Virus record (IMG/VR): IMGVR_UViG_3300018012_000099
Reading direction: 5' to 3' (one strand)
Source of the DNA: a virus
Lineage: Duplodnaviria > Caudoviricetes
Length of the DNA stretch: 64,000 nt
Shown: one piece after another, positions 43,293 to 63,775 of the stretch
How positions within the stretch are numbered: the stretch's first letter is position 1
Layout: each line of letters starts with the position of its first letter
Notes under the pieces: model-generated
Databases searched by the model: none
Told to the model about the DNA's origin: nothing
What the model saw: the letters and a program-made list of their open reading frames with translations, nothing else
Translations under genes and position numbers: made by a program

Positions 43293-44093
43293 ATGTCTCT
43301 AAAACTTTTACAACCAGGCATTCAGCCTTTGGGTCAATTTGATGGTCTCGACTCTGACGTATTAACGTTGAAGGGTGGAGAAGTTGTTTCTTTTGCTTCT
43401 ACCCAAACCTCTGGTCAACCAGGTGTTACTACTGCGAGTTTGGATAAAGCGGCTTATGATTCATTCGACGGATACGTCAATGGTGGCAGCAACGTCTTTT
43501 ATCGTCCAGTGGTAACTAGACTGTGGAATGGTACTAACCTTCCTGCTGACGGTTATACTGCTGTAACAGCTAGTGCTCCAGTGGGCGCTGCAACCGGTCG
43601 TCCTTTGATGCTCGCTGACGATGGTATTACTGGTTACGGTACTCTCTTCGGTACTGTAGTTGGTGGTACTGTTGGTCAAGTTTCCTACGGTCCAAACAGC
43701 GTTGTTGCTTCTGCTAACTTGCTCGGACCTCACACCGCTACCGGTTCTGGTAAAGTAACTTGCTGGGATAAGCCAGGTCTCTACGCCGTCTCCTTGGACG
43801 CTGTCGATACTACCGCTTCTACTGGTTTAGTTCCAACTAACGTTACAACTGCTACCGTCGGCGTTGCCCTTGGATTCACTTCCTTGGGACTCTTGACTCC
43901 AAGCGGTTCTGCTCAAGACATTACTCACGGTCTAGTGAGCGTGGGTCACTTCGTTGAGTTCAACACCAACGGTTCTTTGGTTACTACTCCTAACTTCCTA
44001 GTTGCCGCTCTCAATAGCCCATCTGGTAACGTTAGCTCGCTTGGTCCAAGATCCTTCGCCTTTGCTACTATTTACTTTGCTCCAAAGAGCTAA
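43293..44093 (+). CDS. Capsid decoration/cement protein
   Basis: Directly upstream of the major capsid gene, strongly biased codons, Gly/Thr/Ala-rich beta protein. Confidence 0.65.
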   Translation: MSLKLLQPGIQPLGQFDGLDSDVLTLKGGEVVSFASTQTSGQPGVTTASLDKAAYDSFDGYVNGGSNVFYRPVVTRLWNGTNLPADGYTAVTASAPVGAATGRPLMLADDGITGYGTLFGTVVGGTVGQVSYGPNSVVASANLLGPHTATGSGKVTCWDKPGLYAVSLDAVDTTASTGLVPTNVTTATVGVALGFTSLGLLTPSGSAQDITHGLVSVGHFVEFNTNGSLVTTPNFLVAALNSPSGNVSSLGPRSFAFATIYFAPKS

Positions 44094-44121
44094 TCTGACT
44101 AGTCAGTTTAGTTGAAATCTT

Positions 44122-44160
44122 AAAACAACCAGCTCATTCGAGCTGGTTGTTTTGTTTTTT
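44122..44160 (+). terminator. Intrinsic terminator
   Basis: 14-bp stem AAAACAACCAGCTC/GAGCTGGTTGTTTT, 4-nt loop, T-tract. Confidence 0.85.
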
Positions 44161-44184
44161 ATGCATTTAAAATTCAAAATATGG

Positions 44185-44199
44185 TAATATTGAGTTATT
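44185..44199 (+). promoter_or_regulatory. Candidate promoter for the major capsid gene TAATATTGAGTTATT
   Basis: ATW-N6-YAT motif between the terminator and two leader hairpins (44207-44223, 44224-44238). Confidence 0.5.
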
Positions 44200-44268
44200 C
44201 TTGTTGATACGCAATTTGCGTATGCTGGTTTTTCCGGCAAACATTTCCAATAAAAACGTGGAGAACAC

Positions 44269-45282
44269 ATGAATATGTTCAATAACCAAGGCGCAGTAAA
44301 CGCCTCATCCCTTAAGGATGCACTACAGACTCTCGTCAAGTATGCTGCTATTCTCGAAGAGAACACCCCAGCAAATCAAGGCTTGGCAGGTCAACCATCT
44401 TTGTCTGATGACAAGCGTGATGAGTTGATTTCTCGTGCCATTATGACCCAAGACGGTAAAATTGCTCTAGCTCAGGCTATGGCAAACCCAATCCGTAGAA
44501 ACCTAGATTATCATGGTATCGCTCGTCGTGCCTTGGTGGTCGATCCATTGCCACAAGGTGCTATGCCAACTTACGATAGAGATATCGATGTTGCCGCTGT
44601 AGTTATCTCCAGCAACGGTACTGGTCCAGAATCCAGAGTATTCGGTGACAGAGTAGTTGTCCCTGAATTCGAAGTTTACGCAAATCCAACCGTTAGAATC
44701 GCCGAAGTCAAGCGTCGTAGATTCAACGTTATCGATAGAGCAGTCCAGAAGGCTCGTCAAGAAATCATGGCTCAAGAAGACGCAAACGTTTTCGCAGCTT
44801 TGGATGCAGCCGCTTCTGTGGAAAATACTCTAACCGACATCGCTGATGCCGGTCTTCTCAAGAGAGACTTGGTTGAAATCAAGCAACAAGTTGATCGTTG
44901 GGACTTAGTTACTACCAAGTACTTCATGAACATCAATGAGTTCACTGACATCCTCAAGTGGGGTTCTGGTGGTGGACAAGGCGTTGGTGGTGGAGACTTC
45001 GATCCAGTAACCATGCGTGAAGTTCTACAAACTGGTCTTTACGCTCATATTTGGGGTACTGACATTATGGTAAGCAAGATTGTTCCTCCTGGAACGATAT
45101 ACGGCGTAGCAGATCCTGAATTCGTCGGAGTCATGCCAATTCGTCAAGACATTGAAGTCTTGCCAGCAGACGAACCAAAGCAATTGAAGCTTGGATGGGT
45201 CGTCAGTGAAATAATTGGTATAGCGATAGTTAACCCACGTAGTGTTGCGGCCGGTAGGAAATCGGTTGTCATCGGGGCTTGA
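44269..45282 (+). CDS. Major capsid protein (HK97 fold)
   Basis: KIALAQAMANPIRRNLDY.GIARRALVVDPLPQG..P.YDRD; E-loop/P-domain-like pattern ending GIAIVNPR; strongest codon bias; flanked by terminators. Confidence 0.9.
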   Translation: MNMFNNQGAVNASSLKDALQTLVKYAAILEENTPANQGLAGQPSLSDDKRDELISRAIMTQDGKIALAQAMANPIRRNLDYHGIARRALVVDPLPQGAMPTYDRDIDVAAVVISSNGTGPESRVFGDRVVVPEFEVYANPTVRIAEVKRRRFNVIDRAVQKARQEIMAQEDANVFAALDAAASVENTLTDIADAGLLKRDLVEIKQQVDRWDLVTTKYFMNINEFTDILKWGSGGGQGVGGGDFDPVTMREVLQTGLYAHIWGTDIMVSKIVPPGTIYGVADPEFVGVMPIRQDIEVLPADEPKQLKLGWVVSEIIGIAIVNPRSVAAGRKSVVIGA

Positions 45283-45326
45283 TCCTGAATAATATCCAAT
45301 AGTTAGCAATAACTAATTGAAACTTG

Positions 45327-45356
45327 AAAAAGCTATCGTATGATAGCTTTTTCTTT
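45327..45356 (+). terminator. Intrinsic terminator after the capsid gene
   Basis: Stem AAAAAGCTATC/GATAGCTTTTT, loop GTAT. Confidence 0.82.
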
Positions 45357-45396
45357 GTTATATAGCAGGTGTGTATGTATATAATGTGGAGCTTTT

Positions 45397-46236
45397 ATGA
45401 TTTCTGTAGAATTATATGAAGAATGTAAAAAATTATATTTAGGCGGTCATTCAATATCTAAAATTTGTTTGGAAAAACATTTGGATAGGCACAATTTGGG
45501 GCGTCGTTTTAAAAAAGATGGAATAAATGTTGGATTAGGTTGCTCAAATGCTCGAACATATAATCTAAATGAGCATTATTTTGACCATATTGATTCTGAA
45601 GAAAAAGCATATATGTTAGGATTCATATATGCGGATGGTAATAATCTATTTCAAACAAATAGAATTGCGATACAACTATCGATTGTAGATAAGGAGATAC
45701 TTCAAAAATTTTCTCAAATTATGTTCGGACAAGAGAATTTAAAATATCGCAAGAATAAAAATAATAAAGGAATTGAATTTGAATATGTGTCTTTAAGTAT
45801 GTATAGCAAACATATGAGCCAGCATCTTGCTACCTTGGGCGTGGTAGAAGCCAAATCCCATAAAATTGTCTTTCCTGACTGGCTTGATAAGTCTTTGTAT
45901 CGTCATTTTATCCGAGGACTAATCGATGGGGATGGTTGGATTTATCTGCCCAATGATAATCGAGATAGTCCTAATGTTGGACTAATTTGCACTCGCAAGT
46001 TAAATGATTTTCTAAAAGACTATTTTGAGAAAGAATTGAGGCTCAAATCTTATTTAGTCAAGGCATATAAACAGGATTTCGAAGTTATGTGTGAAATTCG
46101 TGTTAAGAACTATCACCAATGCAAAATATTTTTGGACTGGCTGTACAAGAGCGCCACTATCTCTTTGCAGAGGAAGTATGAATTATATCAGGAATTTCTC
46201 AACCGATACGATAATTTGAGAGATCAAAACAAGTAA
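45397..46236 (+). CDS. LAGLIDADG homing endonuclease (free-standing), paralog of 35656-36495
   Basis: EEKAYMLGFIYADG and HFIRGLIDGDGW. Confidence 0.9.
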   Translation: MISVELYEECKKLYLGGHSISKICLEKHLDRHNLGRRFKKDGINVGLGCSNARTYNLNEHYFDHIDSEEKAYMLGFIYADGNNLFQTNRIAIQLSIVDKEILQKFSQIMFGQENLKYRKNKNNKGIEFEYVSLSMYSKHMSQHLATLGVVEAKSHKIVFPDWLDKSLYRHFIRGLIDGDGWIYLPNDNRDSPNVGLICTRKLNDFLKDYFEKELRLKSYLVKAYKQDFEVMCEIRVKNYHQCKIFLDWLYKSATISLQRKYELYQEFLNRYDNLRDQNK

Positions 46237-46253
46237 TTATTTTACATCTACCT

Positions 46254-46880
46254 ATGAGCCTCGATCGTTTATTAAAACAAGCCGAATACTTCGAAAAATT
46301 GTCGCAACAAGACCCATATGATAGTAATTTGCGTAATTTGGTAGTGAATACTCGCCCCGATGGACGCAATTTTTCATTTCGTGAAGTAGTGGATGTAGTG
46401 TTACAAGATCTAACATCTTTGGATCGAAGTGAAAAGGATCCGGAGGTTTCCCAAGCTAGTCATGGATTATTGAATATTCTTAATAGCCTGGAAGTTCCCG
46501 ATCCCAATGCTATGTTAAATGCAGCGAAGGCGGCTAATAATGTTATTCAACAGAGATATGCTAATGATGCTGAAAAAACCAAAATAGCCAAATATCTAGT
46601 ATCTCTGACGCAAATCATCATCAATAAGTATTTTACCCAAAAATCCACAGATACGTCTGGTGGTGATGTGACCACCGAAGGAACTTATGTGTTTCTGCAA
46701 AGAATATTTAATACTCTTCATAGCGGTCAATCTTTAAATGAGAATGATGCCAATGAGTGGAAAAATTCTCGTACCTTTTATGTGCGACGACTTAATGGGT
46801 TAAATTCTCTACCCAATTTGACACCATCTCAGCAAAACGAGAAACAACTAATCGAATTTGTGATCAGCAAATTGCACTAA
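46254..46880 (+). CDS. Hypothetical protein
   Basis: 208 aa; MSLDRLLKQAEYFE N-terminus. Confidence 0.7.
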   Translation: MSLDRLLKQAEYFEKLSQQDPYDSNLRNLVVNTRPDGRNFSFREVVDVVLQDLTSLDRSEKDPEVSQASHGLLNILNSLEVPDPNAMLNAAKAANNVIQQRYANDAEKTKIAKYLVSLTQIIINKYFTQKSTDTSGGDVTTEGTYVFLQRIFNTLHSGQSLNENDANEWKNSRTFYVRRLNGLNSLPNLTPSQQNEKQLIEFVISKLH

Positions 46881-46955
46881 ATATTCTTATTGTCTCTTGT
46901 GTGAAAATTTTCCATAGAAAAATGAGTGATATTCCTGTATTTCTTTGGAGATTAT

Positions 46956-48176: not shown

Positions 48177-48178
48177 TT

Positions 48179-49471
48179 TTAACGTAATACCGCTTGTCGA
48201 AGCATTTCTAACAGATATTCTTTATCATTATGCTCGGGATGTTCCAAAATTTCCTGATAGCAAACATCTAAAAGTGCCTTCATTCTGGGACCGGGGGTCA
48301 TTCCCGCTTTTAGAAGATCGTCTCCGTTAATTTGCATAGCCTTACGAGAATGTACCGTGGTATCTTGGTATTTTGCCAGCAGCGTTTCCGCAGGCACGTC
48401 CATGGCTCTGGTTAACTTTATAAATTCATTATAGGTATGCTCCCATGGGTCGGGGGCTTCATTCTTGAACTTTGCTATAAACTTCCTGTAGGGAAACGCT
48501 CCGTCTTCTAGGTGCTGAAAATCTAACAACCTTTGCAGTAGGAAAGCAACTCTCTTGATGGATTTGTTTGAGAATTTAAGATCAATAAGCTCCTGCTCCA
48601 CTAGTAAGTGTGGTAACTTGTTGTAGAGTAAGGCTAAACGGGTTTCTAACTCACCCGCACATTGATTCAGTGACGGAATTAGGGGAAGTTGTCGTCCCAT
48701 CAAGCATGGACAGACAATATCCAAGGCTCCGGACATGTGTAGGTACATAACTCCAGCATGAGGGCGTGAAGTCATAAGAGTTTTGCTTAGTTCGTCATTG
48801 ATACGTTCTTTGGAAACCTTCTTCAAGGTTTCCAAAGAATCTATCATTCCCTGAAAGGTTTCATCATGGATAGCGAAGCCAAAACGTGCAGCGAAACGAG
48901 CTGCTCGCATAATACGTAAACCGTCTTCTTGGAATCGTTTTTGTGGAACCCCCACAGCACGAATGAGACCAATCTTAATGTCTTCGTATCCGTGAAAAGG
49001 ATCCACGCCCACATTGCTTACTGGATCGAAGGCTATGGCGTTGATGGTAAAATCTCGACGAGCCAAATCTTCCGTGATGTTTGTAACAAATTGGACCGAT
49101 GCCGGACGACGTCCATCTCGATATTCACCTTCTACTCGAAAAGTGGTGACTTCGAAATGATTTTCCACGCCTTCGCCCATGCATACCGTCACTGTGCCAT
49201 GTTGCAGTCCCGTAGGAATGGTTCTTTCAAACAGTTGGATGACTTGTTCAGGCGAAGCGTTAGTAGTAATGTCCCAATCTTTGGGCTGTAGTCCAAGATG
49301 TAGGTCTCGTACGCACCCTCCTACGATGTAGGCTTGAAAACCTGGATTCTGTAGAATGTTACAAATTTCGATAGCTTTTGGATGAATTAGGGGCTGAAAA
49401 AGACGATTATGTGACATATGCGGTAACATAAAGTTTAAAATTTGGGTGTCAAGCCCTTTCTTCAGCCGCAC
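48179..49471 (-). CDS. cca: CCA-adding enzyme (class II tRNA nucleotidyltransferase)
   Basis: AYIVGGCVRD, DWDITT, EVTTFR.EGEY.DGRRP loop, DLARRDFTINAIA, EDGLRIMRAARF. Confidence 0.92.
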   Translation of the reverse strand: MRLKKGLDTQILNFMLPHMSHNRLFQPLIHPKAIEICNILQNPGFQAYIVGGCVRDLHLGLQPKDWDITTNASPEQVIQLFERTIPTGLQHGTVTVCMGEGVENHFEVTTFRVEGEYRDGRRPASVQFVTNITEDLARRDFTINAIAFDPVSNVGVDPFHGYEDIKIGLIRAVGVPQKRFQEDGLRIMRAARFAARFGFAIHDETFQGMIDSLETLKKVSKERINDELSKTLMTSRPHAGVMYLHMSGALDIVCPCLMGRQLPLIPSLNQCAGELETRLALLYNKLPHLLVEQELIDLKFSNKSIKRVAFLLQRLLDFQHLEDGAFPYRKFIAKFKNEAPDPWEHTYNEFIKLTRAMDVPAETLLAKYQDTTVHSRKAMQINGDDLLKAGMTPGPRMKALLDVCYQEILEHPEHNDKEYLLEMLRQAVLR

Positions 49472-49518
49472 TTAGATAATATTTCGATATATTATTGTAA
49501 TCTCAATAGGAATTCTAC

Positions 49519-50226: not shown

Positions 50227-50229
50227 GTT

Positions 50230-50943
50230 ATGAGTAGTGAAAGTAATTTTGCTTATGCTCTTAAATACAATACTCATTTTATTGTAAGAAATATTACAGG
50301 TAGTTCTGTAAACTCACCTTATCAAAAAACTATTTTTATTTTTAATTATCCCATTAATTATGGAGATACTAGAGATATTTTGGCTATCCCTGGAATAGAA
50401 GAAACAAATATTCGTGCTTCGCTTCTCAAAGGCGTATTACGTCACAAGTTATTATGTGGAGATATTCAATTAGTTTCCAGCAATATTGATTTAATTCAGT
50501 TTAGCGATAAACAACGTACTTTTCTTCAAGGTTTTGGATTTGGTAAAGGTATTGCTGTGGGATATAATGAATTAGATGGATATGTACAAAGTCTTTTTGG
50601 TGGCGGGGGTAGTGGAGGAATTACACCACAACAGCATGAAACACTTAGGCAACTTATTCATTTCATATCGGATGGTCCGGGTGATGGATTTGCTACAGGC
50701 GCCGTTAGAATTATCAGTCCAGCAGGGAGCTCATTCCCTACCTCAATAATATGGTATTTAGATGGTACGCTAACTACTAAATTAGTAGAAAGATTAAATG
50801 TATGGGACAGTAATGGTATGCCGTCCACTATTACTTGGAATATGTACGATTTAGATGGTATTACTATTATTCATACCATAATAGATACGATTACATACGT
50901 CAACAATATTTTTGAAACAACAAGAGTTAGGACGATCATATGA
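50230..50943 (+). CDS. Hypothetical structural protein sharing an N-terminal domain with the 46956 protein
   Basis: IFNYPI..G.TRD.LAIP.I.E..IR.SL.KG.L...VSS.IDL conserved in both. Confidence 0.75.
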   Translation: MSSESNFAYALKYNTHFIVRNITGSSVNSPYQKTIFIFNYPINYGDTRDILAIPGIEETNIRASLLKGVLRHKLLCGDIQLVSSNIDLIQFSDKQRTFLQGFGFGKGIAVGYNELDGYVQSLFGGGGSGGITPQQHETLRQLIHFISDGPGDGFATGAVRIISPAGSSFPTSIIWYLDGTLTTKLVERLNVWDSNGMPSTITWNMYDLDGITIIHTIIDTITYVNNIFETTRVRTII

Positions 50944-51581
50944 ATAATCTGTGTTCAATATATAAAGTTACTAATAAAACCAATGGTAAAATTTATATTG
51001 GTCAAACTTGGCTTACTTTACGAAAAAGATGGCGGTTTCACTCTAATGATAAAAGTGGTTGCATTAAATTACGAACAGCTATTAAAAAATATGGTATTAA
51101 TAGTTTTAGTATAAATCTTATTACTCTTTGTGGAACACAAGAGTCTGCTGACTATTGGGAAGATTATTTTATTAAACACTATGATGCCATTAAAAATGGC
51201 TACAATATAAAAGAAGGCGGTAGTCGTGGCAAATGGTCAGAAGAAAGTAAAATGAAGCTTTCAAAATCTAACATGGGACATTTAGTTAGTAATGAAACAA
51301 GAAAAAAATTATCTGTTTCTCATAGCGGCAAAGAATTTTCGGAAAAACATAAGCAGAATATATCAAGATCTCATATGGGCAAAATACATACTCAAGAAAC
51401 TAAAGAAAAAATGCGTGGAGAAAATAATGCACGCGCCAAACTTAACAAAGATCAAATAAATGAGATAATTAATTTATATAGCACTGGTAATTATTCATCC
51501 AGGCAGCTTGCTAAAAAATTCGGTATTGGCAAGACGCAAATTCTTAGAATAATTAACAAAAAATCCTGGGTTAATATTTAA
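50940..51581 (+). CDS. GIY-YIG homing endonuclease
   Basis: SIYKVTNKTNGKIYIGQT...GYN; NUMOD3-like HLVSNETRKKLS / HTQETKEKM; C-terminal HTH. Confidence 0.9.
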   Translation: MNNLCSIYKVTNKTNGKIYIGQTWLTLRKRWRFHSNDKSGCIKLRTAIKKYGINSFSINLITLCGTQESADYWEDYFIKHYDAIKNGYNIKEGGSRGKWSEESKMKLSKSNMGHLVSNETRKKLSVSHSGKEFSEKHKQNISRSHMGKIHTQETKEKMRGENNARAKLNKDQINEIINLYSTGNYSSRQLAKKFGIGKTQILRIINKKSWVNI

Positions 51582-51590
51582 GGTGAACTA

Positions 51591-53339
51591 ATGTCAAACG
51601 AATCACCCGCAGCCATTTTATTTGACGAATTAGGTAATCCGGTTGGGGTTATGTTCGATGGATATGCGTATCGATTACAAGTAGAAGCTAAATTAGCCTC
51701 TAATGTAGATAATTTTTTATCGTCAGATCGATCTATTTTTGGGAGCGGTGTAATAGCAGATAGACTTTCGCAAGTATCTGCCAGTTTTGTAGGACAGCTA
51801 ACAGATACATTTAATAATAATATTGGTCAAATTACTTCTGGTAGCGGCTCAATTAATATTTCTAACAGTGTACTACAAGTTTCATCTGGTACTGATAATA
51901 CATCTACTGTTCAAGTATTTACCAATAGCACTACAAAATATTATCCAGGCAGAGAAATTTATGTGCAATTTACCGCAGGGTTTACCATTCCAACCGATGT
52001 TAATAGTGAACAACAAGCTGGTTTATATGATGGGTACAATGGATTCTTTATTGGTTATCATGGGACAATATTTGGACTCACGATTCGTAATCTTTCAATG
52101 GATTCTTTTGTTCCTCTATCTTCTTGTAATGGAGATTTGTTGGATGGTAATATCAACAGTAAGTTTACTCGAGATAATGTACCAGAGGTTCTTAATTTTA
52201 CCTTTTCCAATGTTTATCGCATTAGATTTGGGTGGCTAGGCAGCGCCCCCATATTATTTCAGATAATGGCACCAGATGGTCAATGGGTAACATTCCACAC
52301 CATACGACAACCAAATACAAGTTCTATGCCAGGTATTGCGGATCCAAATTTGCCAATTACTTTTGAAATTATAAAGAATAGTTCCGATACCAATAATATT
52401 CAAATAACTACCAGTTCTTGGGACGCTGGTATAGTCGATAGCTCTCAGAGTCCTTTTAGGATTGTTCCAACATTTTCTTTATTAAACTCTACTAGCGAAT
52501 TATTAGATGGCTATGCTTCGTTTATCGGAATTTCAGAAGATGTTTCCACTTATGTTTCTATAGATATTACCGTATTATCCGATCAAATTAGTGATGTTAA
52601 TGGATTATTATTAGAATGGTCTCAAGATGGTATTATTTTTGCTTATCCTGAAAAGTTTACCATTTTACCTGGTCTGGGAGCCTTTTATTCTTTTGCACCA
52701 AGAGCTAAATATTTTAGATTAACATATACAAACGGTCCGGTAAATCAAACACAATTTTCTTTAACAACTGTTTATTATCCGGTTAACCGATCTATTTACG
52801 TACAAAATTTAAATACTGATATTGCTGCACAAAGAGCTACCGATGTAGTTAGATCTGTTTTGGCCGCTCAGAAAACAGGTGGTATTAACAGTGATTATAC
52901 TAATTTACAGGCAACTGATGATGGTATTCTAAAAGTTATCTCTGAAATTACAGATAGTGTTAATGGTCCGGTGGCTGTTAAATCTCCGTTTACTGCCGCC
53001 ATAGCGAGTGATCCGGCTTTGGTGGTTGCTATTTCACCTAATAATTCATTTACTGTTACTACAACTAAACCGGCAACCAGCGTCACCTCAAGTGTTTCTG
53101 GTTCTACCTCCAATTCTAATTTTCTACCTTCTAATGGAACTAGGTTAGGTGCTACGATTTACAATGATTCGTCAGCTTTGCTGTACATAAAATTAGGTGC
53201 CGTGGCAAGTGTCACTGATTATACTATTAAACTTTTTCCATTAAGTTATTATGAAGTTCCATATGGCTATACTGGACAAATAGATGGCATTTGGTCAAAT
53301 GCAACCGGATTTGTTAGAATTAGTGAATTAACATCTTAA
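51591..53339 (+). CDS. Fibre/spike-like structural protein (modular)
   Basis: 582 aa, beta-rich; N- and C-terminal modules shared with the 53397 protein, internal module shared with the 54542 protein. Confidence 0.7.
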   Translation: MSNESPAAILFDELGNPVGVMFDGYAYRLQVEAKLASNVDNFLSSDRSIFGSGVIADRLSQVSASFVGQLTDTFNNNIGQITSGSGSINISNSVLQVSSGTDNTSTVQVFTNSTTKYYPGREIYVQFTAGFTIPTDVNSEQQAGLYDGYNGFFIGYHGTIFGLTIRNLSMDSFVPLSSCNGDLLDGNINSKFTRDNVPEVLNFTFSNVYRIRFGWLGSAPILFQIMAPDGQWVTFHTIRQPNTSSMPGIADPNLPITFEIIKNSSDTNNIQITTSSWDAGIVDSSQSPFRIVPTFSLLNSTSELLDGYASFIGISEDVSTYVSIDITVLSDQISDVNGLLLEWSQDGIIFAYPEKFTILPGLGAFYSFAPRAKYFRLTYTNGPVNQTQFSLTTVYYPVNRSIYVQNLNTDIAAQRATDVVRSVLAAQKTGGINSDYTNLQATDDGILKVISEITDSVNGPVAVKSPFTAAIASDPALVVAISPNNSFTVTTTKPATSVTSSVSGSTSNSNFLPSNGTRLGATIYNDSSALLYIKLGAVASVTDYTIKLFPLSYYEVPYGYTGQIDGIWSNATGFVRISELTS

Positions 53340-53343
53340 ATAT

Positions 53344-53358
53344 CAATAAAAAAGCATA
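53344..53358 (+). promoter_or_regulatory. Candidate late promoter CAATAAAAAAGCATA
   Basis: ATW-N6-YAT motif upstream of ATG 53397. Confidence 0.42.
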
Positions 53359-53396
53359 CTGGTAAGTAATACCATTTGAATTATAATGGAGCCTTC

Positions 53397-54101
53397 ATGT
53401 CTAGTCAATCGCCAGCATCAGTTTTGTATAGTTCAGATGGTTATGAATTAGCCTCGATACCTGGCGCCATTATTCCAACTGGCACTCGTGCTATTTTAGT
53501 TGATGGTACAGATGGTACTCACGCACGTACTTTGTTAACTGATGCGCTTGGACGGCTTCAAGTAGTGGGGGCTGGTACCGCGGGCAGTCAGAGTGGCGGT
53601 GTTATTACTATTCAAGGCGATCCATCTGGTACCCCTGTTCCCGTTTCGGGCACGGTCGCAGTTAGTTCTGTTGGCGGTACTGTTACGGTAGCTGGTACTG
53701 TCACTTCGAATCAGGGCGCACCTAATACTCTAACCAATGCTTGGCCAGTTGAAATTACAGATGGCACTAATGTTTTAGGAACCTCCTCTCATCCAGTTAA
53801 TATTACGGGGTCCGTCACTACCAGCAAATCTTCTACTGGCACTATTACTAGTGTATCTGGTTCTGTTACTAGCATCACATTATTAGCTTCAAATGCTAAT
53901 AGAATTTCTGCGACTATTTTTAATGATGCCCCGTCTGGTAACATATTATACATAGCGCTTGCAGCTAGTTCAAGTACTGCGGCTTATACCGTTAAACTGT
54001 GGCCTGGCTCTTACTGGGAATTACCGGTGGATTATACCGGCACTATTTCTGGAATTTGGACTGCAGCCACCGGAAACGCATTAGTGACTGAACTGACTTA
54101 A
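53397..54101 (+). CDS. Fibre-like structural protein (modular)
   Basis: Start MSSQSPAS after GGAG; NAWPVEITDGTN module; C-terminal ..ATIFND...YT.KL.P.SY.E.P..YTG.I.GIW module. Confidence 0.72.
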   Translation: MSSQSPASVLYSSDGYELASIPGAIIPTGTRAILVDGTDGTHARTLLTDALGRLQVVGAGTAGSQSGGVITIQGDPSGTPVPVSGTVAVSSVGGTVTVAGTVTSNQGAPNTLTNAWPVEITDGTNVLGTSSHPVNITGSVTTSKSSTGTITSVSGSVTSITLLASNANRISATIFNDAPSGNILYIALAASSSTAAYTVKLWPGSYWELPVDYTGTISGIWTAATGNALVTELT

Positions 54102-54108
54102 AGGTAAA

Positions 54109-54516: not shown

Positions 54517-54541
54517 ATCACTAATAAGAAAGTATTAAGTT

Positions 54542-56674: not shown

Positions 56675-56686
56675 AGGAGATATAAA

Positions 56687-56989: not shown

Positions 56990-57136
56990 AAAGAGCTAAT
57001 TAATCAAGCACTAACATTCAATAGTTCAGTAGTTAGCTTTTTATTTTATATCTGTTTGAAAGGAATTAGTTTTAAAAGACTAACATGATATATAAAAGTT
57101 AAACCCCGTGCGACGAAAAGGTGTGTAGACTATGAA

Positions 57137-58009
57137 ATGGAAGCACATATGAGAGCCCTTGTTCTTAGTGGCGGCGGGAGTAAATCAGCCTATTCCGTTG
57201 GTGTGCTGCAACATTTATTGGGTAATTTAGAAATTAAATATGATGCTATCGTTGGCGTCTCCTCTGGAGCCATTTGTGCTGCTTTTTTAGGTATGTTTTC
57301 TCATGGCTATGAAAAAGAATCTATCGACGCCCTGTCTAAAATATGGCTCAGTTTAAATAACGAAAAAATATATCAGAGATGGAATCCCTTTGGTCGTTTT
57401 CATGTGCTTTGGAAATTAGGATTTTTTGATAATTCACCCATGAAAGATTTAATCAGAGATAGCATATCATTAGAAAAAATACGATTATCGGGCAAAAATA
57501 TTACTGTTGGAACTGTCAGTTTAACTTCGGGAAAATATACCAATTTTGATCAGAATTCAGATGATTTTATTGGTGCGGTTATTAGTTCTGCCGCTTTTCC
57601 AGTTATGTTTGAACCTGTCATGATTGGAAATCAATTGTGGAGCGATGGGGGCATAAAATCTATTAGCCCTATTCATACGGCAATTATGCTGGGAGCAGAC
57701 CAAATTGATGTGATCGCTACCTCCCCAGAAACACGAGATAAAAGATGGATTGACAAGCCATCCATTATAGATATAATCAAGAGATCATTTGATCTCTTTA
57801 CGGAAAAAATACTTTCTAATGATATCGAAAAAGCCATCCTGTACAATAAGCTGGCATCCGTGGGATTAACCGAGAAAAAATGCGTACAGCTCAACATTAT
57901 CCGCCCAGATTACAACTTAATTGAGGATTTATTGGACTTCCATCCCACTAAAATAGCTGAAATGATTCAAAAAGGCTATCGCGACGCAAAATTGAAGTAC
58001 ACAGTGTAA
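57137..58009 (+). CDS. Patatin-like phospholipase
   Basis: LVLSGGGSKSAY, nucleophile GVSSG (GxSxG), WSDGG. Confidence 0.9.
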   Translation: MEAHMRALVLSGGGSKSAYSVGVLQHLLGNLEIKYDAIVGVSSGAICAAFLGMFSHGYEKESIDALSKIWLSLNNEKIYQRWNPFGRFHVLWKLGFFDNSPMKDLIRDSISLEKIRLSGKNITVGTVSLTSGKYTNFDQNSDDFIGAVISSAAFPVMFEPVMIGNQLWSDGGIKSISPIHTAIMLGADQIDVIATSPETRDKRWIDKPSIIDIIKRSFDLFTEKILSNDIEKAILYNKLASVGLTEKKCVQLNIIRPDYNLIEDLLDFHPTKIAEMIQKGYRDAKLKYTV

Positions 58010-58042
58010 TAATTCTACATACTATGATAGGAGCGCGCAAGA

Positions 58043-58402
58043 ATGACAACCAATGATTTCCCGGGAATTGGCTATACTAACTATGGACGTAATTTTAACT
58101 TTTTTCAAAAAGTATCGGTTACTGCCACCAGTTTTGGATCTAATAGTGTTGATGGATACCAGCCTGATGCTTTGATCACGTTTCCAACACAAACTGTAAC
58201 TTTTCAATTGGAGCCTGCCGCCGAATCTGACGGATATGGTCTCATTCAATATTCTTTTAATGGAATAACCATCGATGGCGACATGAGTTACGGAAATTAT
58301 AGTGCTAATTTAACTTTTGAAAATCGAGTTATTTCTAAAATTTGGTTTAAACTCGTTTCTGGTAGCGCTACCGTTAGAATAGAGGCTTGGGGCATTCGTT
58401 GA
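58043..58402 (+). CDS. Hypothetical beta-rich structural protein
   Basis: 119 aa, RBS AGGAG; two DGY motifs; ATW-N6-YAT motif at 58007-58021. Confidence 0.7.
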   Translation: MTTNDFPGIGYTNYGRNFNFFQKVSVTATSFGSNSVDGYQPDALITFPTQTVTFQLEPAAESDGYGLIQYSFNGITIDGDMSYGNYSANLTFENRVISKIWFKLVSGSATVRIEAWGIR

Positions 58403-58455
58403 TCGTTTAATATTTTTGGAGATGTTGAAGCCTGGGCATATAAATACATATTTAT

Positions 58456-59262
58456 ATGCGAGGTAAAATGGGAAGAAAATTTGTTGATTTGACTGGTCAG
58501 TGTTTCGGTATTCTAACTGTTATTAGGAAAACAGATAAAAATAAATTTGGACAATCTCGTTGGGTTTGTCGATGCACATGCGGCAATGAAATTACTACTG
58601 TCGGAAATAGGTTGATACAGGGCGGTGTAAAATCTTGTGGGTGCATCAAATTTACTAAAGATTTAAGTGGGCAAAAATTTGGTAGTTTGACGGTATTAAA
58701 TCAGTCCAAAACCGCTAACCAAAAAAATACTGGTAAACATATTTTTTGGTTGTGTCAATGTGTTTGTGGGATTAAAAAAGTTATTAGGGGAGATTCTTTG
58801 AAAAATGGAGAAGTAGTTTCGTGTGGTTGTTTACATCCACGTAAACCACATTCTGATCCAGAATCGGCTAGAATGTCCAGTGCTCGAAATGTATATAGAA
58901 ATACTTATATGGACGGAGATTTAAGTTTTGAAGATTTCTACGATCTTTCACAGTTGCCATGTTATTATTGTGGGGCACTTCCGTCAAATCGAGAAAATGT
59001 TTTTTTGAGACATCAATCCACAGATTTTGCAAAACGAAACGGTCTTTTTATTTACAATGGTCTTGACCGCGTGGACAGTAATTACGCACATGATAAGGAT
59101 AATGTTGTTCCGTGCTGCTACCCATGCAATTGGTCTAAATCCAGCAGAAGTGTCGATGATTTTGAAATATGGATAGTAAAATTGGCTATAAATTTGTGTA
59201 GCAGAGATAAATCCAAGTATCAGGAAATTATTGAATCTGTAGATGGTAATATGGTAGTATAA
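58456..59262 (+). CDS. HNH-type homing endonuclease with repeated Cys-rich DNA-binding units
   Basis: Two DL.GQ.FG.LTV...W.C.C.CG...SCGC units; NGLDRVDS...NVVPCC..CN. Confidence 0.85.
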   Translation: MRGKMGRKFVDLTGQCFGILTVIRKTDKNKFGQSRWVCRCTCGNEITTVGNRLIQGGVKSCGCIKFTKDLSGQKFGSLTVLNQSKTANQKNTGKHIFWLCQCVCGIKKVIRGDSLKNGEVVSCGCLHPRKPHSDPESARMSSARNVYRNTYMDGDLSFEDFYDLSQLPCYYCGALPSNRENVFLRHQSTDFAKRNGLFIYNGLDRVDSNYAHDKDNVVPCCYPCNWSKSSRSVDDFEIWIVKLAINLCSRDKSKYQEIIESVDGNMVV

Positions 59263-59277
59263 TAAAGTAATGAGGAG

Positions 59278-60357
59278 ATGATAATGACAATTTCATTAGA
59301 CAGTTTAACTTCTGATCCAGTTGGAACAGAAAATGGTTTAGTTACAAGAAATATTCCATCAGGAACACAAGATGTTAGTGGTTCTGAAGTTATTATCGAT
59401 GGTTATGTCCAAACCAATCCTAATGTTATTGTTTCTAATTTTCCATCGGAACAGCACGTACTTGTTGATGGTTATGTGGAAACTAATCCGGTGGTTATTC
59501 AGGGTACCAATCCTTGGAATGTTAGTATTAGTAATTTTCCATCCGATCAACATGTGATAATAGATGGCTATGTACAAACTAATCCAAATGTTAATGTCAC
59601 TAATTTTCCAGCAACACAAGCGGTCACTCAAAGTACTAGTCCGTGGGTAGTTTCATCTTCTGGCAATTTTAATAACTCTTCTGTTTCTTCTATTGCATCG
59701 GGCGCCCCCACTTCAGCTACTTTTGTTGGTGGTGAGGTTCAAGCTGTACAATCAGGTTTAACATCTGGAGATTTGTATCCACTCTCTTTAACCACTACTG
59801 GATTATTGCGTGTCGACGGATCAAATATTACACAGCCTGTCAGCGGTACCGTAACTGTCAATCAAGGCTCAGCGGCTGCCTTATCAGGCGCGTGGCCAGT
59901 AGAGATAACTGATGGATATGGTAATATTCTTGGAACTTCTTCCAATCCTATTATAACTACATCTAAAGCTGTTAATCGTACGACATTAACTTTTGTAGGT
60001 TCTCATTTTAATGGTGTAAGTAATACAGAAACTATGATAACTTTTACCCCATATTCTAATTTTGTGGCGGGAACTGCCGGAACTTCTTTTGCTGTTGACA
60101 CTGGTAAAACATTAAGATTACAAAGTATAATTTTAAGTGGTTATAATGGCAACGGATTTTTTAATTTAAGAATTTCTAGTAGCGGATCTGTTACCACAAG
60201 TACGCCAATTATTATAAGTGTGTATTTAACAGGCACTGTTAATGTTCCAATTCCAGAAGGACTAGAATTGACTGGATCGGTACAATTTGGAGTATCTCAA
60301 GTGCAAACTCCTACTGGCGCTGTATTTAGTATGACTATTACTGGATACGAATATTAA
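59278..60357 (+). CDS. Fibre-like structural protein with three DGYV(Q/E)TNP repeats
   Basis: Repeats at the N-terminus, WPVEITDG module, C-terminal domain paralogous to the 54542 protein ending GYEY. Confidence 0.75.
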   Translation: MIMTISLDSLTSDPVGTENGLVTRNIPSGTQDVSGSEVIIDGYVQTNPNVIVSNFPSEQHVLVDGYVETNPVVIQGTNPWNVSISNFPSDQHVIIDGYVQTNPNVNVTNFPATQAVTQSTSPWVVSSSGNFNNSSVSSIASGAPTSATFVGGEVQAVQSGLTSGDLYPLSLTTTGLLRVDGSNITQPVSGTVTVNQGSAAALSGAWPVEITDGYGNILGTSSNPIITTSKAVNRTTLTFVGSHFNGVSNTETMITFTPYSNFVAGTAGTSFAVDTGKTLRLQSIILSGYNGNGFFNLRISSSGSVTTSTPIIISVYLTGTVNVPIPEGLELTGSVQFGVSQVQTPTGAVFSMTITGYEY

Positions 60358-60383
60358 TTTTCCTGTAAGTTTAGGGGTAAGTC

Positions 60384-60725
60384 ATGCCATTTAGATTAAA
60401 TGATAATGGACAAATAGATACGACTAAATATAATGATCGCGCCATGTCTGAGCGAGAGACTCGACATAAATTATTATCTTGGGCGAGACAATTAGGCTAT
60501 GAAAGGGATATGCTACTGTTGTTTGCTAAGTTTGATAAACTACTAAAAAACTGTACTAATGAGGGAGAACGCAAAGATATTGCTGCATTAGGGTGGGCAG
60601 AAACCCTAAAATTGATGGGCTCATATGGCACTTTTTTCATGGATGGAAAAGTAATTTATTCGAAGGAAGATGATCAAAGATACTCTTTGCTCTTGAATAA
60701 AGAAGATAAAGGAATTGTGAAATGA
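60384..60725 (+). CDS. Hypothetical protein
   Basis: 113-aa ORF overlapping the start of the csp gene. Confidence 0.68.
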
Positions 60726-60955
60726 CAGATAGTAAGTTTTTTGGCGAAGTGTTATGGTTCGATCCTGCTAGAGGATTTGGATTTATAGGTTGGGAGAAAG
60801 ATGGCGTACAACAAAAAGACCTGTTTGTCCACTTTTCCGATATTTCGTGCGAAGGTTTTAAAACCCTTTACAAGCATCAAAAGGTATCTTTTGGTCTGGG
60901 CACCAACATTCGTGGGCAACCCAAAGCAGTGGATGTCGCCGTCTTGAAGAACTAA
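60722..60955 (+). CDS. csp: Cold-shock domain protein
   Basis: GEVLWFD..RGFGFI (RNP1), DLFVHFSDI (RNP2), GFKTL. Confidence 0.92.
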
Positions 60956-60956
60956 A

Positions 60957-61040
60957 TTATCTATCTAGTTCTCTAATGATGATGTCTAATTTGCTGTTAA
61001 CATTATCCGTCAAGTTTTTGCCGTTAATTTTGAAAACCAC
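60957..61040 (-). pseudogene. Orphan 27-codon remnant resembling the C-terminus of the holin-like gene at 61635-61907
   Basis: VVFKINGKNLTDNVNSKLDIIIRELDR* aligns gap-free with VKNLENICTNKLDEILEHLKND*. Confidence 0.55.
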
Positions 61041-61642
61041 TTAGATGATAATTGTCTGAACTTTTTAATTTGTTTAGTTTTAGATATTTTTGCTTTAGTC
61101 TCTTCTGAACGTGGCTTACCAAAAGTCCAATGTTTATCTTGACGACAAGCGTTACTTATTTTGTTTTTAGTTTCTTGCGAGTGTTGTTTACCAAACATTG
61201 AGGTTTCTTGACCTATTTTTCTTGGTCTTTGTTTGGCTTTTTCCGACATTATCTGTTTGGTGTCCAAAGAATGTGTTTTGCCAAACATTTTATTATTTTC
61301 TCCCAAATTTAATTTTGAAAGTCTCTTTTTGCTTTCTTCTGAATGCCCTCCCTTATACCCTTCACCACCGTTAGTTAAATTATAGACATTGTTCTTGCCT
61401 AATAATTCTTTAGCTCTAATAATCCACTCTATCTCAGTATAATTAGCTTGATCTTCTGTTTCTACGCTAGTAATAATATTTAATGAAAAATTTTGTCTCC
61501 CATATTTGTTAATAGCAAGATCAATAGGCATAGACTTACTTTTACATGAATTGTGTTCCCAATTTCTTCTTTTGAGATTATTAGTTTGACCAATATATAC
61601 TTTACCATTGATCAAATTTTCATAAATATAAATATCAATCAT
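61010..61642 (-). CDS. GIY-YIG homing endonuclease
   Basis: DIYIYENLINGKVYIGQT; NUMOD3-like repeats FGKTHS / FGKQHS / FGKPRS. Confidence 0.9.
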   Translation of the reverse strand: MIDIYIYENLINGKVYIGQTNNLKRRNWEHNSCKSKSMPIDLAINKYGRQNFSLNIITSVETEDQANYTEIEWIIRAKELLGKNNVYNLTNGGEGYKGGHSEESKKRLSKLNLGENNKMFGKTHSLDTKQIMSEKAKQRPRKIGQETSMFGKQHSQETKNKISNACRQDKHWTFGKPRSEETKAKISKTKQIKKFRQLSSKWFSKLTAKT

Positions 61643-61907
61643 TTTTTAAATGTTCCAATATTTCATCTAATTTATTGGTACAAATATTTTCTAGATTTTT
61701 TACTTTGACATCCAGAGATGTAATATCTTTAGCATCTTGTAAAATGTGGTCGTTCAAACTTTTTTCAATATTGCTTAATTGATCGTCATGTTTTTGTCTG
61801 TATGTTCTAATTAATCCAATTACAGAAATAACGACGGCTACTATGACGCCAACGGAACTAATAATATCTTTGAGTTGTGACCACTGAATAACAGTGGGAT
61901 CACTCAT
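61635..61907 (-). CDS. Small single-TM protein with a coiled-coil C-terminus (holin-like)
   Basis: IISSVGVIVAVVISVIGLI followed by RTYRQK; the holin function is inferred. Confidence 0.6.
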   Translation of the reverse strand: MSDPTVIQWSQLKDIISSVGVIVAVVISVIGLIRTYRQKHDDQLSNIEKSLNDHILQDAKDITSLDVKVKNLENICTNKLDEILEHLKND

Positions 61908-62044
61908 TTTTTTCGCCTTTTAGTTTTGATTTTGGCGATAACGATGTCGCATTTATCACTAACTTGTTCGCAATCCGTTGCCACCTGTTCAGATGCTTCT
62001 AACACATCTGTTTGTTGTTTTACTTGTTGTTGCTTTTGTACCAT
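61904..62044 (-). CDS. Small 46-aa ORF (MVQKQQQVKQQTDVLEASEQVATDCEQVSDKCDIVIAKIKTKRRKK), below the ORF-track cutoff
   Basis: RBS AAGGGG, starts 2 nt after the upstream stop, ATGA overlap with the holin-like gene. Confidence 0.68.
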   Translation of the reverse strand: MVQKQQQVKQQTDVLEASEQVATDCEQVSDKCDIVIAKIKTKRRKK

Positions 62045-62046
62045 AA

Positions 62047-62508
62047 TTACCCCTTAGTAGCAATAAAAGGCTTGAACTCATCCATCTGCGCTAAATCGGC
62101 ATTCTCATTAGCGTATTCTTCATCTTTCTTTTGCTGATCGAGGTTGGAAACTTCTAATTCTTCGTAATGCGTCTCTTTGATTTCTAAGATAGATCGTTCC
62201 CTAGTTGGAATAAAGGTCTCTTTTAAGAATGGCATACTAGGTTGAATGATGTTGGGAGCCGTTTGACGAACTTTTATCTTATCGCTCTTTTTATAGATGG
62301 ATCCGCTAGATGCTGATTTTTGAAGTTGTTCTAAGGTATATTGATAATGTCTCTTATCCAATAGATTAATGGAACGAAATGCTGGCACCGTCAGATTTAA
62401 ATCTGCCAGACTAACATTACGATTACAAACGTTAGAAATCCAGAAGGTAGGAGCTTCTTTTACCATATGAGACCTCTTTGTAATACTAGTATATTCATAA
62501 TTTGTCAT
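62047..62508 (-). CDS. Hypothetical protein
   Basis: 153 aa; F.I.N....N-type start loosely resembles the 46956/50230 domain. Confidence 0.68.
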   Translation of the reverse strand: MTNYEYTSITKRSHMVKEAPTFWISNVCNRNVSLADLNLTVPAFRSINLLDKRHYQYTLEQLQKSASSGSIYKKSDKIKVRQTAPNIIQPSMPFLKETFIPTRERSILEIKETHYEELEVSNLDQQKKDEEYANENADLAQMDEFKPFIATKG

Positions 62509-62525
62509 AATACCAAAGGAACCAG

Positions 62526-62882
62526 ATGACCGAAATCTTACAATACATGCCGGGTATGCAAGTCACTATCTTTTTGGAAACATTAGATATCAATGGACAA
62601 CGTACCAACGATGGATATGATGGATACACCGTACCCGTGGTGACTCGTATCATTTTGCCGGGTTATACCTTAGCGATGGGATATCCACAACCACTTATTC
62701 AATTGGATGTAGGTCTATATACTTTTCAGTTTCAATTGCCTAGTGGAGCCGCGGCAGTCGGCAGTTATTTAGTAGATGTAGCCTATATGAATACGTTGGG
62801 GTTTGTGAATTATCAAACTTATCAAATTATTGTGACTGCGCCGTTTGGTCTCTACGGTATAACTGTGCCGAGTGTATCATGA
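62526..62882 (+). CDS. Ig-like (BppU-type) structural protein
   Basis: VTIFLETLD.NG...GLYTFQFQLP...GSYLVD; resembles the N-terminus of the next gene. Confidence 0.62.
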   Translation: MTEILQYMPGMQVTIFLETLDINGQRTNDGYDGYTVPVVTRIILPGYTLAMGYPQPLIQLDVGLYTFQFQLPSGAAAVGSYLVDVAYMNTLGFVNYQTYQIIVTAPFGLYGITVPSVS

Positions 62883-63775
62883 TTAAGGGTAGAGGCGAAT
62901 TAATTGACGTGACAGATCAGGTCAATTTAATTGTACAATTTAAAGATGCATCAGGTAACCCCATCAACACGGATTCCTTTCCACAAATTTCTATTGTTCA
63001 ACCCAGTGGCTTGGTGCTATTAGCGCCCACTTCTATGGGAGTAGCTCAAGTGGGGACGGGTCAATATTCCTATATCTTTACCGTTCCTATCAACGGTCCT
63101 TATGGTGTCTTCAATGATGTTTGGACGGGTTTTATCAATGGTTCTCGTGTGCAAGCCACTTTGAGTTTTGTGGTGACTCACACCCAGATTCCAGCCATCA
63201 ATACGGATGGTTACATTCATTTGGGTGATGATCCAGGATTTCGTTATTCCCAATGTGCTATTCAAAATATCAACAAATTGATTAAATCACTGAAGGCTAG
63301 ACTTAACAGCGCCGGTAAAGCTAAATCGGTAGATGGTTATGGCAATACTATCTATGTGGATTGTGATATCTTTTCAATTGATATGTTGGTGACTTTTATT
63401 GCTACAGCTTTGTGGGATTTTAATCAGGTGCCGTATTTTACTTTCTTTACTTTTGATGAAGATGATTTCGTTAATCAGTTCGGGGAGATTTTGGTGGAGG
63501 GAGCTACTTTGTATGCGTTGGCTTCCAAGGCTTTGATCGAGAGGGGAAGAGAGTTTCAGATTACGGATAATGGATTGAATTTTAATCCGCCGACGGTAAG
63601 TGAGTTGATGGAGACACAGTATTCGACACTACTAACGGCATATAATGATAAGCTACGATATATAAAGAACTCACTTCGTCCGGCACCAAGAGGTTTAGGA
63701 GTATTTAGTATGAATAGTGCTATAAACCCGGCATTTGCAAGATTACGCCACCTTAGGGCGAGACGTCTGATCTAA
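62879..63775 (+). CDS. Neck/head-tail adaptor-like protein with an N-terminal Ig-like domain
   Basis: VQFKDASG...GTGQYSYIFTVP; DIFSIDML..FI.TAL.DFNQ.P and ...FQITDNG.NF.PP helical adaptor-like C-terminus. Confidence 0.6.
   Translation: MIKGRGELIDVTDQVNLIVQFKDASGNPINTDSFPQISIVQPSGLVLLAPTSMGVAQVGTGQYSYIFTVPINGPYGVFNDVWTGFINGSRVQATLSFVVTHTQIPAINTDGYIHLGDDPGFRYSQCAIQNINKLIKSLKARLNSAGKAKSVDGYGNTIYVDCDIFSIDMLVTFIATALWDFNQVPYFTFFTFDEDDFVNQFGEILVEGATLYALASKALIERGREFQITDNGLNFNPPTVSELMETQYSTLLTAYNDKLRYIKNSLRPAPRGLGVFSMNSAINPAFARLRHLRARRLI

Follow-up and report, generated by a model that had tools for sequence, protein, structure and literature searches.

Why should a single tripeptide, Asp-Gly-Tyr (DGY), recur through the outer structural proteins of a tailed phage and be missing from its head cluster? 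The question is raised by a stretch of 64,000 nucleotides (nt) from a Caudoviricetes virus (IMG/VR record IMGVR_UViG_3300018012_000099), referred to here over its full length as the window, in which DGY occurs 17 times between positions 43293 and 63775. We find that the motif is strongly enriched (~17-fold over chance) on outward-facing virion proteins throughout one clade of uncultivated huge phages and is nearly absent elsewhere, that its density is kept as individual sites come and go, and that the block of genes carrying it is followed by a conserved glycosyltransferase cassette. We lean, tentatively and with somewhat less than even confidence, towards the explanation that DGY is where a phage-encoded modification system recognises its targets, probably to glycosylate the Tyr.

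Enrichment of DGY in the virion proteins of one clade

The 72 open reading frames (ORFs) of the window were translated and their DGY tripeptides counted, and the 17 occurrences over eight ORFs that a sequence-only reading of this DNA had listed are all present: two each in ORFs 43293, 58043, 62526 and 62879, one each in ORFs 50230 and 53397, three in ORF 51591 and four in ORF 59278 (Table 1). The late region in which they lie (43293-63999; 26 ORFs, 6,557 amino acids (aa)) contains 54 DG dipeptides, and the 17 DGY compare with 0.96 expected from composition (Poisson p 6e-16), 1.8 expected given the number of DG dipeptides and 3.5 expected under a first-order Markov model (p 2e-7); under both models no other tripeptide of the region comes close to DGY in enrichment. 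The roughly 4,600 aa given earlier as the sequence holding them is inexact: the carriers total 2,220 aa and the whole region 6,557 aa. The earlier observation that no DG in the head cluster is followed by Tyr holds, with 44 rather than some 35 DG in the cluster (10426-43179; 10,646 aa), where 1.25 DGY would be expected and none is found.

We see practically no chance that this excess is due to chance, composition, a DNA-level motif or a gene-calling artefact. When the three tandem copies of a 23-aa repeat in ORF 59278 are counted as one, and the DGYDGY of ORF 62526 likewise, 14 sites remain (Poisson p 2.6e-12; binomial, 14 of 51 DG, p 7e-10, and so below 1e-9), with p = 6e-6 after correction for 8,000 tripeptides; the enrichment therefore survives the removal of paralogous repeats on which the sequence-only reading had staked its claim. 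The DGY codons differ synonymously at all three positions and the gene calls are the same when TAG is read as glutamine (Gln), placing the signal at the protein level and ruling out a DNA-level motif or recoding (no tRNA genes were found in the window). The same pattern recurs in ~140 related contigs, and after these tests no point in favour of an artefact is left.

The signal is also specific, because NGY, EGY, SGY, DGF, DGW, DAY, DSY and YGD all occur at expectation: it is the exact tripeptide that is enriched and not a general preference for turns or aromatic residues. Generic hairpin propensity is ruled out as a full explanation by NGY and DGF at expectation and by outgroups that lack the excess. 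Outside the virion module, the window contains a single DGY, within the helix-turn-helix of the sigma-70 region-4 protein ORF 9840, where its presence is a coincidence.

Overlapping public contigs with identical encoded proteins led us from the window into the rest of this phage. The remaining virion module holds 40 DGY in 15,231 aa against 2.5 expected, with Tyr after 40 of 113 DG; together with the window part, 57 of 167 DG are followed by Tyr (p 2e-41). Carriers beyond the window, fibres and peripheral baseplate proteins among them, are two proteins of ~650 aa, proteins of 1936, 2391 and 1345 aa, the sheath and a gp6-like wedge. The motif avoids the conserved parts of these last two: the sheath has DGY at aa 209 and 418 and none in its conserved core (aa 759-936), and all four DGY of the wedge lie outside the conserved core (aa 3-264). 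A 1668-aa tail protein, a gp25-like protein and several small tail proteins are free of DGY, and the major head protein within the window, with one DG and no DGY, serves as an internal negative control. Confinement to outward-facing virion proteins, as first proposed, is therefore what we observe: the cement protein, the lectin-like receptor-binding protein, the trimeric fibre, the outer domains of the sheath and the peripheral baseplate.

The ~140 related contigs extend the enrichment beyond the window genome, where the sequence-only reading had asked for a test. Three syntenic contigs of 160-503 kilobases (kb) have 18, 16 and 8 DGY per 21 kb, against ~0.9 expected in each. Eighty IMG/VR loci that include the cement gene give 295 DGY against 29 expected in that gene and those downstream of it, and 1 DGY in 162,580 aa of the upstream head genes (1 in 528 DG over the 10 kb upstream of the cement gene, loci L007-L086). 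Reduced to 204 roughly independent DG contexts, this is 1 against 5.7 expected (p 0.02), and avoidance of DGY in the head-cluster proteins is no more than suggested. In the closest large relative, G001 (95% identity in the major head protein), DGY ranks second in enrichment among the tripeptides of the whole genome, and 41 of its 44 occurrences fall within the virion block; the complete 452-kb genome G003 has the same pattern in weaker form. Scans of viral contigs with the single 51591 protein or the GT4-like protein discussed below returned nothing, and it was alignment queries that gave matches; in the phage collection, neither the 51591 protein nor the 10916 protein has a close cultured relative.

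More distant phages differ. Among structural proteins of S-RIM2, none of 48 DG is followed by Tyr, and the site homologous to DGY147 of ORF 51591 reads DGD. Tyr follows 5 of 66 DG in T4 (5 of 38 in tail and baseplate, 0 of 22 in fibres, 0 of 6 in the head) and 3 of 55 in the tail module of Bacillus phage G, and DGY totals are near expectation in Rctr197k (5 observed, 5.5 expected), Tunturi_5 (17 and 11.4) and LR745208 (21 and 18.3). As these outgroups have no virion-wide excess, the enrichment is a property of one clade. Elsewhere in phage G (NC_023719.1, 316-348 kb) a cluster of six giant proteins has a repeated module '..NGRHT-DGY-WYVRG..'; 13 of 63 DG there are followed by Tyr, largely within this one paralogous module, and DGF is also common (7).

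Structural setting and turnover of the sites

The carriers are varied proteins. ORF 43293 belongs with the capsid cement/decoration proteins by its fold and by its position next to the major capsid gene: it matches cement/decoration chains of Pam3, BB1, HFTV1, TW1, XM1 and E217 (ten chains, Z 9.5-8.1 in VIA-align), and its Atlas feature and structure neighbours are Phage_cement families. No Pfam family, Phage_cement included, was matched at E up to 0.1, and a Foldseek search with the model gave no match, the wider VIA search having found the fold. The AlphaFold2 (AF2) model has low confidence around DGY59. A nearly invariant Gly-rich stretch of the same protein (aa 111-148, 'DDGI.GYGTLFG.VVGGTVGQ'), with a predicted local distance difference test score (pLDDT) below 50, probably contacts the capsid lattice or trimer partners.

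In ORF 50230, DGY116 marks the junction between the N-terminal domain and a Gly-rich linker that leads into a widespread C-terminal domain of ~110 aa (aa 125-237), and it is kept in 3 of 4 syntenic orthologues. The C-terminal domain ends 859 varied proteins (859 matches), often directly preceded by DGY in unrelated linkers. Marked by a conserved 'HETLRQLIHF..GPGDGF' and shared by hundreds of fibre-type proteins (the longest 1,012 aa) that are unrelated in their other parts, it is probably a common tip or attachment domain. ORF 53376, which has a TTG start at 53376 and an alternative ATG at 53397 (the DGY count is the same either way), has its N-terminal module, DGY included, in common with the metagenomic homologues P0007, P0013 and P0018.

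The modules of ORF 59278 are common to >200 homologues on huge-phage contigs, and PDB sequence searches with the fibre proteins gave no matches. A homotrimer is predicted for aa 20-250 (score 0.66, with the best of 3 controls at 0.00; 0.66 is a mark reached by 20 of 30 proteins solved as same-chain pairs and by 1 of 23 solved as single chains). In this trimer model strand residues 93-95 fall in the confident interface and residues 96-101 (DGYVQT) do not, residues left unnamed in the interface list being uncertain only; a role for DGY as a core staple of the fibre trimer is unsupported by this list. Residues 88-102 of the repeat also have a sub-threshold match to PF16693 (YscD/CdsD BON-like; 22.2 bits, cut-off 24), probably due to repeat composition.

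The clearest structural context comes from the AF2 model of ORF 51591 (pLDDT 79.5), which matches concanavalin A (ConA)-like beta-sandwiches, namely the receptor-binding domain of TM4 gp23 and legume lectins. DGY23 is modelled as the two-residue turn of a hairpin between strands 17-22 and 25-28, DGY147 as the hairpin loop between strands 139-146 and 150-157 (pLDDT ~95), and DGY306 in a loop before strand 310-312. Elsewhere, a hydrophobic beta-strand precedes most DGY sites. The short linkers and N-terminal arms to which the motif had been assigned are thus a minority, and the prospect of ordinary buried beta-turns, originally set out as damaging to the idea of a signal, is borne out by the models in so far as the modelled sites are turns.

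Most of the sites turn over rapidly. DGY59 is kept in all but one of 120 cement orthologues, which are 63-82% identical, and DGY86 lies in an insertion loop found in few. Further cement DGY occur at aa 17, where DGL becomes DGY, in the insertion loop and at aa 172; these sites have changed at least 9, 5 and 6 times, respectively, on a tree from which the variable-site columns were left out, giving at least 20 gains and losses in total. Of 82 homologues of the 51591 protein, 4 have DGY147, which arose when GY was inserted into an older 'YD-NG' hairpin, and the window protein alone has DGY306. Aligned positions in the window phage and G001 include 3 shared sites, 7 found only in the window phage and 3 only in G001: the G001 orthologue of the 62879 protein, 85% identical, has DGF and DAY at the two DGY positions, that of the 58043 protein has FGT at the first, and that of the 62526 protein has the first DGY in common.

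The 1345-aa family gives the fullest view, with 265 DGY in 51 orthologues spread over 32 alignment columns whose occupancy ranges from 42 of 51 down to singletons. In columns that retain DG, the next residue is Y in 171 cases, I in 22, S in 14, N in 13, T in 11, V in 7 and F in 3. Phe is normally the commonest replacement for Tyr, and its rarity here therefore points to the hydroxyl group.

Across 131 non-redundant DGY contexts there is no extended consensus, and this, together with the turnover and the placement in loops, turns and linkers, is how a short linear signal would behave, as had been suggested. Several recurrent modules nonetheless begin with DGY (the 23-aa repeat, 'AWPV..T-DGYGN', N-terminal modules and a 'PG.DGY.L' unit), and some carriers are, judging from these modules, hidden relatives, making the description of the carriers as mostly non-homologous correct only in part. 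Such shared descent of fibre modules does not account for the observed gains of sites. Lack of positional conservation in homologues, named beforehand as evidence against a signal, is largely what we see for single sites and not for density, which is kept clade-wide; we propose that selection acts to keep sites numerous while individual ones appear and vanish.

A linked glycosyltransferase cassette and the competing explanations

On the same strand, 22 nt after the last DGY-rich gene (that of the 1345-aa protein), a cassette begins that encodes, in order, a GT4-like glycosyltransferase, an S-adenosylmethionine (SAM) methyltransferase, a GT2 glycosyltransferase, an Fpg/Nei DNA glycosylase, a 335-aa protein, a second GT2 and a nucleoside diphosphate (NDP)-sugar 4,6-dehydratase/epimerase. 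The set recurs in G001, where genes for a TubZ/PhuZ-like tubulin and a GH25 lysozyme come next. The GT4-like gene stands at the same position in five of five large relatives and, by profile search, in 62 of 62 long IMG/VR loci. In these loci the 10 kb upstream of it contain 741 DGY, where 44.7 are expected, and the 10 kb on its downstream side contain 22, with 29.8 expected. The same profile found no match in phage G, Rctr197k, LR745208 or Tunturi_5, so that all lineages with the gene are DGY-rich and four huge phages without it are not, the positives forming one clade. Phage-encoded glycosyltransferase and sugar-biosynthesis genes are thus linked to the virion genes, as in virion glycosylation.

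In the explanation we favour, DGY is a selected, clade-specific short motif of outward-facing virion proteins and domains. The cement, receptor-binding, fibre, outer sheath and peripheral baseplate proteins would present it at the tips of beta-hairpins, in loops and in linkers between domains, where a phage enzyme would recognise it as a sequon and modify the Tyr hydroxyl. The best candidate chemistry would be O-glycosylation by the cassette, through its GT4-like protein, two GT2, SAM methyltransferase and NDP-sugar dehydratase, and the outcome would be a glycan coat outside the particle. That anything is attached to the Tyr, and that the cassette acts on proteins, we infer from this linkage and from the behaviour of the motif. 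A more specific version, in which the D-G-Y hairpin tips are the acceptor of a new cytoplasmic system of protein Tyr-O-glycosylation in a large environmental clade of huge phages, and capsid, sheath, baseplate and fibres may be coated with a phage-made glycan, possibly methylated and containing deoxy-sugar, is doubtful.

A number of observations weigh against glycosylation of these sites. The near-invariance of DGY59 in the cement protein fits a structural or contact role, ordinary D-G hairpin turns likewise follow hydrophobic strands, and the avoidance of DGY in head genes is weak once relatedness is allowed for. As all positives belong to one clade, the co-occurrence of cassette and motif amounts to a single evolutionary event. 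DGY enrichment persists in G003, which has no GT2 match; this weakens GT2 as the key enzyme and leaves only the GT4-like gene universal. With an Fpg/Nei DNA glycosylase gene among its members, the cassette could instead act in the modification of DNA or of the host surface. Finally, Tyr O-glycosylation is, to our knowledge, rare and known mainly from S-layer proteins; our search of its literature returned S-layer work only and no sequon, and a search for the DGY motif in phages or tail fibres returned no paper.

How, then, do other explanations fare against the same evidence? The main rival, which we find somewhat doubtful, is that DGY has a structural role only: it would be a micro-motif in which a D-G beta-turn is followed by a Tyr with its hydroxyl held in a fixed hydrogen bond, either inside the hairpin or with an adjacent subunit. 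It would have been inherited and spread in the clade by duplication and shuffling of short fibre modules, with nothing attached to it. Precedents exist in the Asp-box, the tyrosine corner and the T-even His boxes. The modelled sites are indeed turns or loops after beta-strands, DGY starts several recurrent modules (the 23-aa repeat, 'AWPV..TDGYGN' and the N-terminal modules), the cement site is kept in 119 of 120 proteins, DGT and DGI are also ~3-fold enriched, as hairpins would predict, and phage G has one DGY-containing paralogous module without having the cassette. A stabilising turn, however, should not be clade-specific, yet S-RIM2, the T4 fibres and three huge phages have no excess; nor is Tyr enriched after N-G turns. 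Sites are poorly conserved between close relatives that keep the density, they arise in insertion loops and inter-domain linkers, and the motif lies outside the confident interface of the trimer model.

The same maintenance of density as positions change, the restriction to outward-facing proteins, including one with a lectin fold, and the preference for Tyr over Phe would also be expected if DGY formed many weak surface binding patches, the Asp carboxylate and the Tyr ring or hydroxyl binding host polysaccharide, mucus-like glycans or a metal ion, with selection on site number and not position. Choline- and glucan-binding repeats of cell-wall proteins are likewise hairpins in which a D/N-G turn is followed by aromatics. 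Three residues alone rarely form a binding site, however, there is no flanking consensus and no known ligand, and the conserved sugar-transferase cassette would be left without a role; we judge this explanation improbable.

Slimmer still, in our estimation, are the prospects of another chemistry or signal, be it Asp-Gly isomerisation or cleavage, Tyr phosphorylation, nucleotidylation, sulfation, oxidative cross-linking or a docking peptide for an assembly chaperone. Such a signal would account equally for the specificity and outer-virion restriction of the motif, and D-G is the Asp context most prone to isomerisation. The enzymes put forward for it fall away, however. The 'atypical nucleotidyltransferase' (48179-49471) is a standard tRNA CCA-adding enzyme, and as all three domains of such an enzyme are present there is no reason to treat it as Tyr-modifying; the dual-specificity phosphatase is not borne out, since searches of five large relatives for the DSPc phosphatase family, as for Sulfotransfer_3 and GT8, gave no match. 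The ORFs are full length with no sign of processing, and >50 sites per virion module fit chaperone docking poorly. Of the original proposal, Tyr modification thus remains the leading idea, with the glycosyltransferase cassette as candidate in place of the two enzymes first named.

Taken together, trans-acting recognition of an exposed D-G-Y hairpin tip fits better than a self-contained structural role, because the signal is specific to the tripeptide, restricted to outward-facing proteins and to one clade, and kept in density as positions shift, with gains by both substitution and insertion, near-absence of Phe and unbroken linkage to the cassette. The case is circumstantial, because the positives form one clade, the cassette may have another target and the D-G turns, one of them invariant, look ordinary. 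It makes a sharp and cheap prediction: >50 defined tyrosines per virion module with or without a mass shift. Should DGY prove to be a modification site, it would give phage virion glycosylation its first defined sequon. It would also be a rare instance of protein glycosylation through Tyr, its code of just three residues lending itself to glyco-engineering, and would mark, from sequence alone, the outward-facing proteins and domains of a large uncultivated clade of huge phages. If the role is structural instead, DGY would be a new, recurrent beta-hairpin motif that strictly requires the hydroxyl of its Tyr, and still a useful marker of the clade's fibre modules.

Gene neighbourhood and known systems

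The late stretch also encodes non-structural proteins that lack DGY: the CCA-adding enzyme, LAGLIDADG, GIY-YIG and HNH homing endonucleases and a patatin-like lipase (Table 1). Homing endonuclease genes are dense in the virion module, with one LAGLIDADG, three GIY-YIG/NUMOD3 and one HNH/endonuclease VII-like gene between capsid and fibre genes. The CCA-adding enzyme gene likewise lies between capsid and fibre genes, on the opposite strand; its neighbour in the relative L002, a 191-aa gene, has a weak RelA_SpoT match, and the 208-aa ORF at a similar position in the window had no Pfam match. The patatin-like phospholipase gene within the fibre block is kept in L002 and G001. In the early region, the DnaJ is full-length, with J domain, zinc-finger region and C-terminal domain.

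Table 1. Coordinates of DGY carriers and other features in the window, and of the cassette beyond it.
Feature	Coordinates (nt)	Strand	Length (aa)	DGY sites	Basis or remark
RecA-like, RuvC, DnaJ, DnaG-type primase core	1504-2697, 5966-6514, 6511-7467, 7818-8585				early region
Homing endonuclease genes	8993-9829, 45397-46236, 50940-51581, 58456-59262, 61010-61642	- for 61010-61642			
Sigma-70 region-4 protein	9840-10295	+		nt 10089-10097	
Capsid cement/decoration protein	43293..44093	+	266	aa 59 (nt 43467-43475), aa 86 (nt 43548-43556)	fold matches; adjoins major head gene upstream
Major head protein	44269..45282	+	337		PHROG 2522, E 1e-78
ORF 46254	46254-46880	+	208		
tRNA CCA-adding enzyme	48179..49471	-	430		Pfam PolyA_pol E 1e-36, PolyA_pol_RNAbd 6e-13, tRNA_NucTran2_2 5e-15
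Two-domain fibre-type protein	50230..50943	+	237	aa 116 (nt 50575-50583)	
Lectin-like receptor-binding or virion structural protein	51591..53339	+	582	aa 23 (nt 51657-51665), aa 147 (nt 52029-52037), aa 306 (nt 52506-52514)	PHROG 1645
Fibre-type protein	53376..54101	+	241	aa 21 (nt 53436-53444)	DGY in conserved N-terminal module
Patatin-like phospholipase	57137-58009				E 3e-25
Small virion-module protein	58043..58402	+	119	aa 37 (nt 58151-58159), aa 63 (nt 58229-58237)	
Trimeric fibre protein	59278..60357	+	359	aa 41, 64, 96 (nt 59398-59406, 59467-59475, 59563-59571), each starting a 23-aa tandem repeat; aa 212 (nt 59911-59919), in 'AWPVEIT-DGYGN' module	homotrimer prediction; common fibre modules
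Small virion-module protein	62526..62882	+	118	DGYDGY, aa 29-34 (nt 62610-62627)	
Virion-module protein	62879..63775	+	298	aa 110 (nt 63206-63214), aa 152 (nt 63332-63340)	
Glycosyltransferase cassette, same phage	L132:13025-18957				beyond the window
Glycosyltransferase cassette, G001 copies	L098:17390-19290, L099:667-5717				

Among systems already described, one close in kind to the proposed modification is that of mycobacteriophages Che8 and Rita, whose capsids are glycosylated by phage-encoded glycosyltransferases (Freeman et al. 2023 cited in PMC11256854). The glycosyltransferase genes there lie beside or near structural genes and outer virion proteins are the presumed targets, giving a glycan coat, as would be the case here. 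The Che8 and Rita glycans, however, are reported on the major capsid protein, whose counterpart in the window has no DGY, and no Tyr-based tripeptide site is known to have been described for them; glycosylation of the window phage is a proposal only.

The closest cultured relative by major head protein is Bacillus phage G (54% identity to gp27), which is likewise a huge myophage with a decoration gene (gp26) directly upstream of the major head protein gene. Unlike the window phage, it lacks the GT4-like gene, has only sub-threshold glycosyltransferase matches elsewhere, and shows no virion-wide DGY excess; its gp26 has no sequence similarity to the 43293 protein.

As a structural motif, DGY may be compared with the Asp-box (S-x-D-x-G-x-T-W), a beta-hairpin motif that recurs in unrelated folds across all life and has no proven function. 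Both are short D/G/aromatic motifs at surface beta-hairpins of non-homologous beta-rich proteins, and the turn of DGY23 and the hairpin loop of DGY147, in carriers that range from the cement fold to the lectin sandwich and the fibres, agree with this. DGY differs in consensus and spacing, only D-G-Y being constant across the 131 contexts, in its confinement to the outer virion proteins of one clade and in its fast turnover. His boxes and glycine-rich motifs similarly punctuate the variable segments of the T-even adhesins gp37 and gp38, much as DGY heads fibre repeat modules. D-G-Y is, however, neither an HxH nor a Gly-rich motif, it is missing after all 22 DG of the T4 fibres, and it occurs outside fibres as well, in capsid cement, sheath, baseplate and globular lectin loops.

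In its dynamics, DGY resembles the glycan shields of eukaryotic virus glycoproteins, which show sequon turnover, and the capsid glycans of chloroviruses, which are attached at atypical sequons by virus-encoded enzymes: motif number is kept, positions shift and sites are restricted to the surface. Those eukaryotic systems use Asn-linked sites, whereas the motif here is D-G-Y in a bacteriophage and its modification is putative.

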